The notes: generated from the sequence alone by a model not told the origin. A stretch of DNA of 64,000 bases from Sulfuricurvum sp. (GCA_024637295.1 JAGXFL010000001.1:126215-190214); one strand, 5' to 3'; shown: positions 3,666 to 21,192, numbered from the stretch's first letter. A program made the numbers and translations.

Positions 3666-4355
3666 ATGGCTAAGTTTAATGAATTTGTTGAGTTTAAAAG
3701 TCTGTCGCTGCTATATGCTGAAGATAATGAAATATTGCGTGAGATCACCGAAAAGACTCTTAAGCTAGTCGTAGGAAAGGTATTTTCTGTAACAAATGGT
3801 GAAGAGGCACTTGATGTTTATAAAAATAACTCCATTAACATTGTCATACTAGACATTCACATGGGTAGCATCAGCGGTATCGATGTTGCAAAACAAATAC
3901 GAGAGTATAATGCTAATATTCCTATCGTCATTGTTTCAGGATCTATTGCTACGGAAGATCTCTTAGCTGCATGCAAGCTCAACTTGATTGATTATATTCA
4001 CAAACCTATAGAATTCAATGTTTTGATAAAACTACTTTATCTTGCGGTAGATCGATTGAAATCCCATGGGATGCTCCAAGCAAAAATCAATGATACCTTA
4101 TCGTATGATTATTTTGGAAAAGCATTTGTTCATGAGAATGGTGAAAAAATCATATTGACAAAAAATGAGATTCTAGCGATTGAACTACTGTTGTCCCAAC
4201 GTGGGAAAATTGTCACCTATGAGACTTTTGCACAAATACTGGATGAAGAGATGTCCGATGGTGCACTTAAAAATCTAATCCTCCGTATGCGTAAAAAAAT
4301 GGGAGATGACAGTAATCTTCAAAACTTAGCTAAAATCGGGTACACTTTTATCTGA
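3666..4355 (+). CDS. OmpR-family response regulator (REC + winged helix)
   Basis: LLYAEDN, ILDIHM, YIHKP. C-terminal LTKNE...LKNLILRMRKKMG...KIGY. Confidence 0.88.
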   Translation: MAKFNEFVEFKSLSLLYAEDNEILREITEKTLKLVVGKVFSVTNGEEALDVYKNNSINIVILDIHMGSISGIDVAKQIREYNANIPIVIVSGSIATEDLLAACKLNLIDYIHKPIEFNVLIKLLYLAVDRLKSHGMLQAKINDTLSYDYFGKAFVHENGEKIILTKNEILAIELLLSQRGKIVTYETFAQILDEEMSDGALKNLILRMRKKMGDDSNLQNLAKIGYTFI

Positions 4356-17391: not shown

Positions 17392-18156
17392 ATGAAACGT
17401 ATTGTAATAAAAGTAGGCACTGCCGTCTTGACAGATAATAATAATATAGCCAAAGAACGGATGATGAATCTCGTGACATTGATCGCAAATCTTAAAAAAA
17501 CGTATGATGTCATCTTGGTCACATCAGGTGCAGTTGCCGCAGGGTACTCGACATTGAAACTCGATAAAAGCAAACAGATTGGGAGAAAAGCATTGGCAGC
17601 AGCGGGACAGCCTATTTTGATGTCAAGCTACAAGCGAAAATTTGGTATTTATGATATTGATACGGCGCAGATACTGTTGACAGAGGATGATTTTGATTCA
17701 CGTAAACGTACGATTATGTTTCAAGAGATCATTAATACGCATCTGAACTATGATATCTTGCCAATTGTCAACGAAAACGATATCACATCGACTCCGGAGC
17801 AAACGTTTGGAGACAATGATCAGCTTTCCGCTCATGTTGCCTATGCTACGAATGCAGATCTATTGGTTATTCTTAGTGATATTGACGGGTATTATGATAA
17901 AAATCCGAGAGACTTTAAAGATGCGAAGATCATTCAGATAATCACAGAAATACCTGCCAGTGCACTTGCCGATGATTCATCGGCCAATAATGCCTTTGCG
18001 ACGGGCGGGATCGTAACCAAGCTCAAAGCTGCCGATTTTTTGATGAAACGCGGAAAAAAGATGTTTTTGTGTAATGGTTTTGATCTTAGAGGTGCAGAAG
18101 ATTATTTGTTTAAAGGTGAACATAACCTTGGGACTCTGTTTAAACCAAAAAAATAA
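17392..18156 (+). CDS. proB: Glutamate 5-kinase (no PUA domain)
   Basis: RIVIKVGT, VTSGAVAAG, AAAGQ, IVNEND, FGDNDQLSA, TGGIVTKLKAA. AGAGGAG RBS upstream. Confidence 0.95.
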   Translation: MKRIVIKVGTAVLTDNNNIAKERMMNLVTLIANLKKTYDVILVTSGAVAAGYSTLKLDKSKQIGRKALAAAGQPILMSSYKRKFGIYDIDTAQILLTEDDFDSRKRTIMFQEIINTHLNYDILPIVNENDITSTPEQTFGDNDQLSAHVAYATNADLLVILSDIDGYYDKNPRDFKDAKIIQIITEIPASALADDSSANNAFATGGIVTKLKAADFLMKRGKKMFLCNGFDLRGAEDYLFKGEHNLGTLFKPKK

Positions 18157-18160
18157 AAAA

Positions 18161-18194
18161 GATGGATAGACAAAATCGATAGATTTTCTACATC
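18161..18194 (+). terminator. Imperfect hairpin after proB
   Basis: gatg..tag..aaaatc / gatttt.cta.catc pairing immediately after the stop; no clean U-tract. Confidence 0.3.
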
Positions 18195-18255
18195 ATCCTA
18201 AACGAAACCTTGTCCATATCAACATCCTCACAAAAAGGGGACAGGCTACTTTATT

Positions 18256-18342
18256 TATCTCTGCCCCGTGTGTCAAAGCATTGATATTCAAGTCGTTTAT
18301 GGCGAAGATAGGATGTTGATGAGTTTGGAGATGGAAGAATAG
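18256..18342 (+). pseudogene. hypA: 3' remnant of hydrogenase nickel-insertion protein HypA
   Basis: Translates to YLCPVCQSIDIQVVYGEDRMLMSLEMEE*, matching the second CxxC and the G-x-E/D...LxSLEME C-terminus of HypA. In-frame stop at 18199 and no start codon for an N-terminal half. Confidence 0.65.
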
Positions 18343-19310
18343 GTGTAGGGTTCACCTGACCCCTTTATTTTGATTTGTTAGCCTTTTTTCATTAAGCTTG
18401 ATAGTGCTTTTGTAAGTTCAGCTTCATCTTTCAAAGCTTGCGAAAGTCTTTCAGACAATTCTCCTAGTACAACTCGCACACTACTTGCCATTTCAAGACA
18501 TTGTTCGTCAGTCAAAGCATGAACACCTTCACTTAAGGCACTATGTAAAAGTTTGATTGGACTGTGACCATTTATGAGTAAACTCTCAGGAATGGCACCT
18601 TTTGCCATATCTAATGCTGTAGTAAACTGTATTTCTTCTATAGCTTTTTGTAATATTTCTATATTTGATTTTGAAGTACCAATTTTATCCGCAACCTTTA
18701 TAATTTCGCCCAGAATCCTATTTTTCTGGTTTTCTACAACTCTTCGGTAATATATAAAAGCTCCTACTCCTAAACCTTGATTTTCACAGCGTCTACCTTT
18801 GAGAAACTCATCCCTGTCTGGCCCAATTAGTTTCATAAGTTTAGAAGGAATTGGAGGGCCATAAGTTGGTAATTCACCAAATTTATAGCATTCACCTTTT
18901 GCTTTCCCTTCCTCCGTAACTTTAGCAGAAAGTGAAAATGTCTTCTCTATTTTTTGGCAATTTGAGCAACGATAAGTTAGATAGAAAAAGCGATAGCCTG
19001 TCATACTTAGTCCTACAGAATCAGCTGTTACGCATCTGAAAAAACGTATACCATTGCAACGTTCATCTTCACAATGTAACTGAATTTCAGGTTTGTTTAT
19101 TTCATATTCGTAATAATGAGCTCGATTAAATGATGCTTTGACTAAATTAGAAATATGAATAAGTTGATTAGGTGGAGTGCTTTCTAAAAAATCTGAAAAC
19201 GATTGATACTCAATTTCTTTTTTTACTTCTTCTTTTGTGTTTGACAAATCTTCCTCCTTATATGTTGTAGGCTAACGTTGAAAGAAAAGGAGGCAGGTGA
19301 ACCCTGTACC
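18342..19310. mobile_element. Single-gene cassette bounded by ~41-bp imperfect inverted repeats with integron-like GTTAGCC cores
   Basis: Left (18342-18383, +): GGTGTAGGGTTCACCTG-ACCCCTTTATTTTGATTT-GTTAGCC. Right (19310-19270, -): GGTACAGGGTTCACCTG-CCTCCTTTTCTTTCAAC-GTTAGCC. One ORF fills the interior and its TAA lies inside the left core. Confidence 0.6.
18378..19247 (-). CDS. Hypothetical protein: Cys-rich N-terminal half + helical DUF4145/HEPN-like C-terminal half
   Basis: 289-aa ORF with AAGGAGG RBS and TTG start. Motifs C-x4-C...C and CSNC, then GRRCENQGLGVGAFIYYRRVVE and LHSALSEGVH. The fold call is from recollection only. Confidence 0.6.
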   Translation of the reverse strand: MSNTKEEVKKEIEYQSFSDFLESTPPNQLIHISNLVKASFNRAHYYEYEINKPEIQLHCEDERCNGIRFFRCVTADSVGLSMTGYRFFYLTYRCSNCQKIEKTFSLSAKVTEEGKAKGECYKFGELPTYGPPIPSKLMKLIGPDRDEFLKGRRCENQGLGVGAFIYYRRVVENQKNRILGEIIKVADKIGTSKSNIEILQKAIEEIQFTTALDMAKGAIPESLLINGHSPIKLLHSALSEGVHALTDEQCLEMASSVRVVLGELSERLSQALKDEAELTKALSSLMKKG

Positions 19311-19367
19311 CTCCATCTTTTTTTGATTTTACGCTAGTGTATCATAAATAGGTATAGGGTTCAGCTG
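19294..19367. repeat. Inverted pair of the 17-bp motif forming a potential hairpin (40-nt spacer)
   Basis: caggtgaaccctgtacc (19294-19310) and ggtatagggttcagctg (19351-19367) are reverse complements with 2 mismatches. Confidence 0.7.
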
Positions 19368-19490
19368 GCTACTTTATGCTCAAAGACGAACTTTATTTCG
19401 TTTTTCACACCACACCGCCGTCATAACACTCTTCTTCAATATAGATTGAGCCATATACTATGATACAATCATGTAAACATAGGGTATAAA

Positions 19491-19913
19491 ATGCTACAAA
19501 TTTCACACACAGTATCTATTCCTGATTCAGAGATCGAGATCACGGCCATCCGCTCCCAAGGAGCAGGGGGGCAAAATGTCAACAAAGTCTCCACCGCGAT
19601 CCACCTGCGCTTTGACATCAACACCTCGACACTTCCCGAACTCTACAAAGAACGGCTATTAGCGCTCACGGATCACCGCATTACCAAAGAGGGAATCGTC
19701 AACATCAAATCCCAAGAATCGCGAAGTCAAGAAGAGAACAAAGAGGCGGCGTTACAGCGGCTCAAAGAACTGATTAAAAATGTCATGGTGATTCAGAAAA
19801 AACGCACAGCGACCAAACCAACCCGTAATTCACAAAAACGACGGATGGACAGTAAAACGAAGCACGGGAATATTAAGAAGATGCGGGGAAAAGTTAATAA
19901 AGGGGAAGGTTAA
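19491..19913 (+). CDS. arfB: Alternative ribosome rescue peptidyl-tRNA hydrolase ArfB
   Basis: IRSQGAGGQNVNKVSTA, SQESRSQEENKEAALQRL, basic tail RTATKPTRNSQKRRMDSK. Confidence 0.93.
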   Translation: MLQISHTVSIPDSEIEITAIRSQGAGGQNVNKVSTAIHLRFDINTSTLPELYKERLLALTDHRITKEGIVNIKSQESRSQEENKEAALQRLKELIKNVMVIQKKRTATKPTRNSQKRRMDSKTKHGNIKKMRGKVNKGEG

Positions 19914-20419
19914 GAAACCTTGAGTTCTTTATGCTTCTTAGGATAATCAAATGACACAAATCGGGCTGAATCTTTTCCAATACTGTTCCAATCATCCTCT
20001 TTTAGTTTTACACTGATAATTCCGCAGGTTGGAATGTTTTCGATAGTGTGTCCGCTGATGTATTCGGCGAATTCTGTCAGTCCTGGGTTGTGTCCTATTA
20101 GAAAGAGAGTTTGGCAGGTTGATGGGATAGATGCGACAACATCTCTAATCGCATCACAATTCGCCGCATACAAAGCCTCGTTATAAATAATCAGATCGCT
20201 TTCATAACTGATTTGTTTTGCAATCTCCACGGCTGTCATAAGCGCACGAACAGCTGGACTTGAGAGGATGAGGTCGGGAAAAATATCTGCTTTGGCTAAA
20301 CTATTTCCCATCAATGGAGCATCTCGTTTCCCCCGTTTATTAAGCGGACGGTCAAAATCATTCAAGAGAGGATCGCTCCAGTCTGATTTGGCATGACGAA
20401 TAAGATACAGTGTTTTCAT
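19910..20419 (-). CDS. sixA: SixA-type histidine phosphatase
   Basis: LYLIRHAKS, DFDRPLNKRG, SSPAVRA, IGHNPGL. Confidence 0.88.
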   Translation of the reverse strand: MKTLYLIRHAKSDWSDPLLNDFDRPLNKRGKRDAPLMGNSLAKADIFPDLILSSPAVRALMTAVEIAKQISYESDLIIYNEALYAANCDAIRDVVASIPSTCQTLFLIGHNPGLTEFAEYISGHTIENIPTCGIISVKLKEDDWNSIGKDSARFVSFDYPKKHKELKVS

Positions 20420-21192
20420 TATCCAATCCTAAAAGAAACTTTTTTAAGATCAACAGGCTTATTGTTTTGTATATCATAGATCCCTTCAAATGAATAGGGG
20501 AATTGACCGTTAAACATTCCTATATGTGCTCCTGCAGCGGTTGTTTCGGCATAATAATATTTTTTTCCTTCAATCGTGAGAGAAGCACGTAAAAAGGGAA
20601 GGGATGTTTCATCATCGACATGGACGACGACAAAGACATGATGGGGTACATAAACAAAGCGGTAGTCAAAGCCTTTTTCATTTAGCAGCGAGGCCAAAAG
20701 ATTGGACTTATCATCGCAGTCTCCCCAGTTGGTTTGTAGTACTTGTTTGGGACTTCGGCTGGTGTGGTCGGTGTGATATGGGATGTGGGTGACATAATCA
20801 AACATGTTTTGGACTTCACACGCATCATTGCCATTGCATTTTTGGGTTAACGTCGTTGCAAGAGCAGAGAACTCTCCGACATTGGCAATGTTTGTTTTGA
20901 TATATTGGCCGTTAAGCTCGATCACCCCCTTGTCATAAATACTGATAAATTCAGGTGAGTTTGGAGTGTGATAAGGCTTCAGATCTCTTGTCTCAATATT
21001 GGTGATTGACATTCCGACATAGACAAACAATCCGACACATAGTCCTATTATCAAAAAGCTTGCAATCCCGGCTTTTTCTTTTGACACAGAGGCTAATTGT
21101 ATTGTGCTGTTAAGTGCAGCCGATCGCAGTATCTCTCGATATACAAGTAAGGCAAAGACAACAATAACGGCGAGCTTGAGCCATATATCCAT
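20419..21192 (-). CDS. Membrane-anchored transglutaminase-like protein
   Basis: Two N-terminal TM segments. SPKQVLQTNWGDCDDKSNLLASLL and PHHVFV give the Cys-His catalytic pattern. Confidence 0.75.
   Translation of the reverse strand: MDIWLKLAVIVVFALLVYREILRSAALNSTIQLASVSKEKAGIASFLIIGLCVGLFVYVGMSITNIETRDLKPYHTPNSPEFISIYDKGVIELNGQYIKTNIANVGEFSALATTLTQKCNGNDACEVQNMFDYVTHIPYHTDHTSRSPKQVLQTNWGDCDDKSNLLASLLNEKGFDYRFVYVPHHVFVVVHVDDETSLPFLRASLTIEGKKYYYAETTAAGAHIGMFNGQFPYSFEGIYDIQNNKPVDLKKVSFRIG

Follow-up and report, generated by a model that had tools for sequence, protein, structure and literature searches.

The window, the whole 64,000-nucleotide stretch of Sulfuricurvum sp. DNA analysed here (GCA_024637295.1, JAGXFL010000001.1:126215-190214), contains a lone open reading frame of 289 aa on the minus strand (18378..19247), placed between an amino-acid-kinase gene (17392-18156) and arfB (19491-19913, plus strand). 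The frame opens with a conserved TTG start 5 nt past an AAGGAGG ribosome-binding site, and its TAA stop lies inside the heptamer GGCTAAC. The TTG codon (19245-19247) is kept in every homologue inspected (ATTTGTCA, ATTTGCCA, AGTTGACA). Read on the plus strand, the heptamers appear as GTTAGCC at 18377-18383 and as its complement GGCTAAC at 19270-19276. Outside them lie two copies of a 17-mer, copy 1 (GGTGTAGGGTTCACCTG, 18342-18358, plus strand) and copy 2 (GGTACAGGGTTCACCTG, 19294-19310, minus strand). The inverted repeat formed by these copies reaches 30 nt with 80% complementarity (18342-18371 / 19281-19310) and runs on imperfectly up to the heptamers, in agreement with the imperfect inverted repeats of ~41 bp described in an earlier note on this DNA. 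The 17-mers, the heptamer pair, the AAGGAGG site and the TAA inside GGCTAAC, all reported there, were likewise located in the sequence. We found a third copy that the earlier note lacks (GGTATAGGGTTCAGCTG, 19351-19367, plus strand), 40 nt from copy 2. Copies 2 and 3 together give a hairpin with 25-nt arms, and copies 1 and 3 form a co-oriented direct repeat of 31 nt (84%) that brackets a 1009-bp unit.

The 17-mer pattern matches three times in the window versus 0.00 expected, with no match in 100 dinucleotide-preserving shuffles. The 2.17-Mb genome as a whole has no copies beyond these three at the cassette locus, and the 250 other genomes of the order contain just two matches with one mismatch, both within coding regions and due to chance. 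Across 185k species genomes almost all matches to the 17-mer were single and due to chance, and an extended motif was common to only three Campylobacterota contigs.

The boundaries of the gene point to an integron. The same 5′ boundary (G|TTAGCC) and the same GGCTAAC over the stop codon are found in homologues at loci L006, L007, L009-11, L170-172 and L265-268, whose cassette arrays come from several unrelated contexts. In a Sulfurimonas MAG (L006), an 88%-identical copy is part of a one-directional array that also holds toxin-antitoxin cassettes, and the divergent recombinase beside this array is IntI (TIGR02249, 319 bits versus the NCBIfam cut-off of 265 bits). Since array homologues have the same boundaries, the heptamers are the R′ and R″ cores of a working cassette. 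The cassette 5′ end (19248..19280, minus strand) reads CAAC|GTTAGCC (R′ core, crossover at G|TT), then TACAACATAT and the AAGGAGG site; GTTAGCC lies 20 nt upstream of the ribosome-binding site and is one position off the GTTRRRY consensus, the deviation that the earlier note had remarked on. The leader GTTAGCC-(A/T)ACAACATA-AAGGAG recurs in L007, L170-172 and L265-268, and the DNA upstream of G|TTAGCC differs among homologues, being either the 3′ end of an attC or the attI-like TTGAATAAATA. Judged by these boundaries, shared with bona fide arrays of which one lies beside an above-threshold IntI, the lone gene is a true integron gene cassette, as the first of two origins proposed in the earlier note would have it, here stranded outside any integron.

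Homologues at 86-88% amino-acid identity carry an intact attC of ~66 nt that opens with the stop-containing GGCTAAC and reads GGCTAACAAATCAG.GGAGCCAATAAATT...GGCTCATTTTAAAC|GTTA (also given as GGCTAACAAATCAG...AAACGTTA). The window departs from this attC after nt 13: the cassette's own attC remnant (18371..18383, minus strand, GGCTAACAAATCA) consists of the R″ core plus 6 nt. On the upstream side, only CAAC (~4 nt) and the R′ core are left of the neighbouring attC. A crude attC finder, which recovers the known attCs in L006, L007 and L009, returned no site at the window's cassette ends and no intact attC; the truncation to 13 nt and this result bear out the remark in the earlier note that the gene is followed by no canonical attC hairpin. 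Comparison with the homologues thus indicates that both attC hairpins that once flanked the cassette are lost.

The identity of the 17-mers emerged from metagenomes, where nine contigs carry the extended motif and where, in Campylobacterota contigs, it flanks a gene for a 255-aa product. This product matches PF01797 (Y1_Tnp, IS200-like, 58.8 bits), has a C-terminal helix-turn-helix, and belongs to a family of ~1900 homologues, several of which are named RayT by JGI. The element context is seen in L238, L240, L243 and L244, and in L240 and L245 the Y1 gene is intact between perfect 22-bp inverted repeats (GGGGGTCAGGTGAACCCTATAC / GTATAGGGTTCACCTGACCCCC). On its coding strand the intact element consists of the left repeat GGGGGTCAGGTGAACCCTATACC, 41 nt of promoter and 5′UTR, the ATG, and the ORF, which ends ...AGAGTATAG and is followed directly from the stop by the right repeat GGTTCACCTGACCCCCC, overlapping the stop codon. 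The G-rich side GGGGGTCAGG is outermost, the outer end being CCTGACCCC(T)n, and there are no R boxes at either end. On this sequence evidence, the 17-mers form the inverted repeats at the two ends of a Y1 (IS200-like, RAYT/REPtron-type) transposase element and are not parts of attC sites. The lead towards Y1/REP-associated transposases in the earlier note was therefore correct in part, namely as to the end repeats. The genome itself has no Y1 homologue (best tblastn E 0.04).

The segment upstream of the gene, 19281..19377 on the minus strand, is an ORF-less copy of this element. It is made up of copy 2 as the right end (19281-19310, outer side toward the cassette), 40 nt left over from the promoter/5′UTR that include a vestige of the start codon, CAT (19311-19350), and copy 3 as the left end (19351-19377). 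Aligned to L245, window 19286-19377 is identical at 45 of 49 nt over the left end and promoter; the ATG remnant is then followed directly by the right repeat, ~790 bp of ORF being gone, and the right end aligns to the stop-codon-overlapping repeat of L245. By this alignment the segment is a MITE/REPIN-like internal-deletion derivative in which both ends are kept and the transposase ORF is absent.

On the other side of the gene, copy 1 (18342..18371, plus strand) is a single, isolated end of the Y1 (RAYT-type) element. Its outer side (ACCCCTTTATTTT) lies to the right, toward the cassette, and its end sequence GGTRTAGGGTTCACCTGACCCC(T)n is common to L047 and L238-L245. The inner side, to the left, abuts a 3′ fragment of hypA (18256..18341, plus strand) that has no start codon and whose stop (..CPVCQSIDIQVVYGEDRMLMSLEMEE*) adjoins copy 1. 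As this fragment is only 59% identical over 27 aa (tblastn, E 1.6e-7) to the C-terminus of the genome's own HypA (C5:202110-202190), it is of foreign origin and did not arise by local duplication. Further left, the sequence AAAGGGGACAGGCTACTTTAT (18234..18254, unstranded) matches 18355-18366 in inverted and 19365-19379 in direct orientation, and the outer flank of copy 3 is found again in its right half, GGCTACTTTAT; we infer that it represents two outer-end halves of the Y1 repeat fused without an interior, i.e. a ‘collapsed’ element. Elsewhere in the genome, the 16-mer AAGGGGACAGGCTA is present at C11:19058 and C5:223724, one of these copies being located just upstream of a Phd/YoeB-like pair. 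A divergent end with promoter remnant lies at C2:64900-64975, after a 4-oxalocrotonate-tautomerase-like gene. Copy 1 together with its T-run (18348-18372, plus strand) scores as an intrinsic-terminator-like hairpin, and in the intact Y1 element the equivalent structure comes after the transposase stop codon.

The hairpins could alternatively be viewed as unusual, long attC sites, which would make the locus either a CALIN with two attC sites or a cassette that an integrase placed at a genomic GTT (attG/SALIN). In its favour, 10 nt separate a 12-bp stem (AAAGGGGTCAGG/CCTGTCCCCTTT) from GGCTAAC on one flank and from GTTGATA on the opposite flank, the chromosomal DNA to the left is joined at G|TT, and lone cassettes inserted at GWT sites of genomes have been described (bioRxiv 10.1101/2022.09.11.507474). 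However, the upstream ‘attC’ has no R″ box and is 92% identical to the Y1 end plus promoter, the ‘loop’ of the downstream site would be the hypA fragment, the ends of the intact Y1 element are free of R boxes, and the true attC, known from homologues, is present in truncated form. We consider this view very unlikely. The candidate of two unusual attC sites was dropped, given that the repeats flank a Y1 gene in metagenomes and that the closest homologues reveal the true attC.

Comparison with the related genome G019 (locus L178) shows that 18225-20418 (2.19 kb) is extra in the window. In G019 the proB paralogue is followed directly by a convergent 257-aa gene, constituting an empty site of the kind that the earlier note had suggested looking for downstream of proB. 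The insertion point of the extra stretch is the 3′ end of the 257-aa gene, and imperfect direct repeats of 36 nt flank it. In the G019 alignment, 18189..18224 (minus strand) corresponds to the last 11 codons and stop (VDMDKVSFRMM*) of the 257-aa gene, a remnant that duplicates the functional gene end (20419-20455) in diverged form and is nearer to G019 than the functional copy. A sliding-identity comparison with G019 gave no signal for a breakpoint within the 257-aa gene. The 2.19 kb missing from G019 includes arfB and a SixA-like phosphohistidine phosphatase gene (19910-20419, minus strand), which are host-like in GC (41-45%), whereas the cassette block has 34-36% GC versus 40-44% in the flanks; the low-GC patchwork takes up ~1.15 kb inside the stretch. 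The order 257-aa gene then sixA is also found in G036. The proB paralogue gave an empty site in G019 only (in G004 guaA comes next instead), and the arfB neighbours, different in every relative, gave none that was informative.

The window gene annotated as ‘proB’ is an accessory amino-acid-kinase paralogue present in ~8 of the 41 genomes of the genus; it is 54% identical to the genus-wide proB copy, which lies on another contig (C3:118429-119187). In turn, arfB is missing from 14 of the 41 genomes, and its upstream neighbour varies by species (loci L021-L046), being a helicase-like C-terminus in several, a DUF86/HepT-like gene in two and a nucleotidyltransferase in one.

These data also bear on a simpler account, according to which the repeats are ordinary REP or terminator hairpins of the host and the gene is an old resident between them. 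Copy 1 with its T-run does score as terminator-like and REPs are commonly found just past stop codons, but the repeat occurs only three times in the genome and not at all in 250 relatives, the gene is missing from 60 relatives save one weak partial match, the GC content of the block is low, and the site in G019 is empty. We regard this account as highly improbable. The earlier note held that its own reading would fail if the motif occurred only here and the gene were syntenic between proB and arfB in relatives lacking the repeats: the motif is indeed confined to this locus, but the gene is not syntenic in relatives.

The polarity of the repeats constrains what could have moved. The outer side of copy 1 (..CACCTGACCCCTTTATTTT|GATTTGTTAGCC) and that of copy 2 (GGCTAACGTTG|AAAGAAAAGGAGGCAGGTG..) both face the cassette, so the cassette lies between two elements and not inside one. 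No integron integrase was found in the genome (best match to the IntI model 60.7 bits versus a cut-off of 265 bits), which, together with the tblastn result for Y1, extends to the whole genome, for an integron integrase and for a transposase of this Y1 family, the statement of the earlier note that neither integrase nor transposase is present. Given the lack of IntI and of a Y1 transposase of this family and the orientation of the outer ends toward the cassette, we judge that the unit is probably immobile today, a relic.

One could still propose that the cassette and its inverted repeats form a non-autonomous, MITE-like cargo transposon mobilised by a Y1/RAYT enzyme in trans, close to the mobilisation by inverted repeats put forward in the earlier note. 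The repeats really are Y1-transposase end repeats; copies 1 and 3, as co-oriented 31-nt repeats, delimit a 1009-bp unit that an HUH nuclease could in principle excise; and near-identical Y1 elements have different DNA past one outer end (L238/L243/L244, L245/L248, L255/L256). For a transposon bounded by copies 1 and 2, however, the polarity is wrong, with the outer ends inward, and the genome has three copies only and no Y1 gene. Moreover, the closest cassette homologues (86-88%) all have an ordinary attC and all lack the 17-mer repeats, and none of ~130 loci carrying the motif has other cargo between such repeat pairs. A cargo transposon is in our view quite unlikely. The search for pairs enclosing different cargo, which the earlier note had recommended, gave none in the genome or relatives, and its other proposal, a distinct repeat-mediated cassette system, found no backing either: a second repeat-cargo-repeat unit was found neither in the genome nor in 250 relatives nor among the closest cassette homologues.

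Overall, we suggest as the probable explanation that an integron cassette became stranded between Y1-element relics that replaced both of its attC hairpins. The starting points are the observed cassette identity, the truncated attC, the identity and polarity of the repeats, the missing enzymes and the empty site; the order of events is conjectural. The cassette would owe its formation and first movement to an integron integrase that used G|TTAGCC and the attC beginning with GGCTAAC. A Y1 element may then have hit attC sites in a donor cassette array, leaving upstream of the gene a complete ORF-deleted copy (repeat, promoter remnant, repeat) in place of the attC, and downstream a lone end fused to the foreign hypA fragment, followed by the collapsed repeat pair. 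The resulting patchwork could have entered the chromosome by illegitimate or homology-assisted recombination. The junctions between repeat and attC are at near mirror positions, R″ plus 6 nt and R′ minus 4 nt, and random decay is no explanation for such near-symmetrical offsets. The promoter remnant of the element may now drive the promoterless cassette; a sigma-70 scan, with a model not fitted to Campylobacterota promoters, found no consensus promoter in the remnant. For the entry of the block, homology-assisted illegitimate recombination and an event mediated by the Y1 ends are both possible. Since the left junction (..GTGAGGAT|GTTGATATG) falls on GTT, integrase-mediated insertion at a genomic site would fit too, and is a possible third route.

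Known systems resemble the locus in part. CALINs are cassettes without integrase defined by detectable attC sites (Cury et al. 2016, PMC4889954), and SALIN/attG cases are cassette insertions at genomic sites with a detectable attC (Loot et al., bioRxiv 10.1101/2022.09.11.507474); by the IntegronFinder model the former have at least two attC sites and the latter at least one, with no integrase nearby. The window cassette is like both in being a promoterless single ORF with a G|TTRRRY start and RYYYAAC over the stop, in a genome without integrase, and in having homologues in real arrays. It differs from both in that its attC is cut to 13 nt and that of the upstream neighbour to ~4 nt plus the core, which suggests that an integrase would no longer recombine it.

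Similarly, a Y1 HUH gene flanked by inverted hairpin repeats, as in L240 and L245 but not in the window genome, is the hallmark of REPtron, RAYT-REP and REPIN systems (Nunvar 2010; Bertels & Rainey 2011, PMC3116915; Ton-Hoang/Corneloup, PMC8266576). The ORF-less doublet at 19281-19377 has REPIN anatomy, and the window repeats, like REPs, come directly after stop codons and are terminator-like. Yet REPIN populations usually number tens to hundreds with one vertically inherited RAYT, whereas here there are three copies without a resident RAYT; the repeat is not dispersed genome-wide, being limited to three copies at one locus plus one divergent relic at C2:64968. The repeat tag is ATAG, ACAG or GTAG instead of the fixed GTAG of REPs. 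The doublet, unlike a REPIN, also keeps the transposase promoter, and is therefore an internal-deletion derivative of MITE-like type.

Mobile elements are known to interrupt integron attC sites and freeze cassettes in place, as do the IS1111-attC group and group IIC-attC introns. These use DDE transposases or retrohoming, insert at defined positions and leave the attC halves intact. The window likewise has a mobile element at the attC sites of a cassette, but the element is Y1-type and the hairpin core of the attC is gone. The locus thus illustrates how an integron cassette can settle as a permanent gene of the chromosome once another hairpin-based element, unrelated to integrons, has destroyed its recombination hairpins, and it is a documented Campylobacterota case of RAYT-type repeats at the borders of an accessory-gene cassette.

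A more far-reaching possibility, unlikely in our estimate, is that Y1/RAYT-type hairpin nucleases and integrons interact mechanistically. In L238, L239, L243 and L244, the same Y1 element as in the window lies ~50-150 nt away from an attC of the same type, the association of this element with cassette arrays amounting to ~3 independent contexts. The DNA beyond the outer ends of the element varies, as described above, which makes these ends places of DNA exchange. Under an interaction, hairpins at the Y1 ends would cut and join at the base of folded attC hairpins, replacing the attC core (R″+6, R′-4), and cassettes could be lifted from arrays and planted in chromosomes without integrase. One transferable module of this kind would be the 1009-bp stretch delimited by copies 1 and 3, and the same activity would have left its traces in the variable outer-end DNA of L238/L243/L244, L245/L248 and L255-L258. 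If true, such an interaction would represent a new gene-capture route.

Several loci of this set show further variation. One flank is common and the DNA past the other outer end is unrelated when L245 is compared with L248-252, and likewise among L238, L243 and L244 and among L255-L258. L243 resembles L244 with a 180-nt deletion adjoining the element end, and L255, L257 and L258 have 2, 3 and 4 copies, respectively, of the 9-nt repeat CTGTTTTCT at the outer end. L255-L264 contain a 58%-identical member of the Y1 family in the same place in many samples, after a gene for a 2024-aa TPS/filamentous-haemagglutinin (CdiA-like) protein and a 156-aa gene; the downstream genes vary by sample. In L006, neighbouring attC sites (2925-2975 and 3927-3977) each carry the same GC-rich insert of ~48 nt (TCCGCTCGCTACGCGACCGGATAACGGGGGCGCG.GCTGAACACCCGC) inside the R′ box, arranged as GTTA|insert|TAGCC or TAGTC with an apparent duplication of TA. 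This insert looks like a second small element targeting attC core sites.

The 289-aa cassette protein has 3280 homologues in several phyla, with 70-88% identity among the matches listed, which come from Sulfurimonas, Aliarcobacter, Thiodiazotropha and Desulfomicrobium. No Pfam, PADLOC or NCBIfam family was matched; a Pfam search with 39 family members gave sub-threshold zinc-finger matches only and no DUF4145/HEPN, a sequence search of the PDB gave no match, and Foldseek of the AlphaFold2 model versus PDB and BFVD returned nothing below E 0.001. This model (39 sequences, pLDDT 71) predicts a confident, beta-rich N-terminal domain of beta/zinc-ribbon type that carries both Cys pairs, and a helical C-terminal domain. 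Because the cassette is so widespread, a putative anti-phage or addiction role is a reasonable guess. We flag the protein as a very widespread and highly conserved cassette product, found across several phyla and in phages. It matches phrog_25239 over its full length (E 3e-87). The zinc-ribbon part (aa 57-131) has a weak match in the C-terminal extensions of two phage ‘portal protein’ PHROGs (phrog_2271, E 3.9e-5; phrog_1289, E 0.0075).
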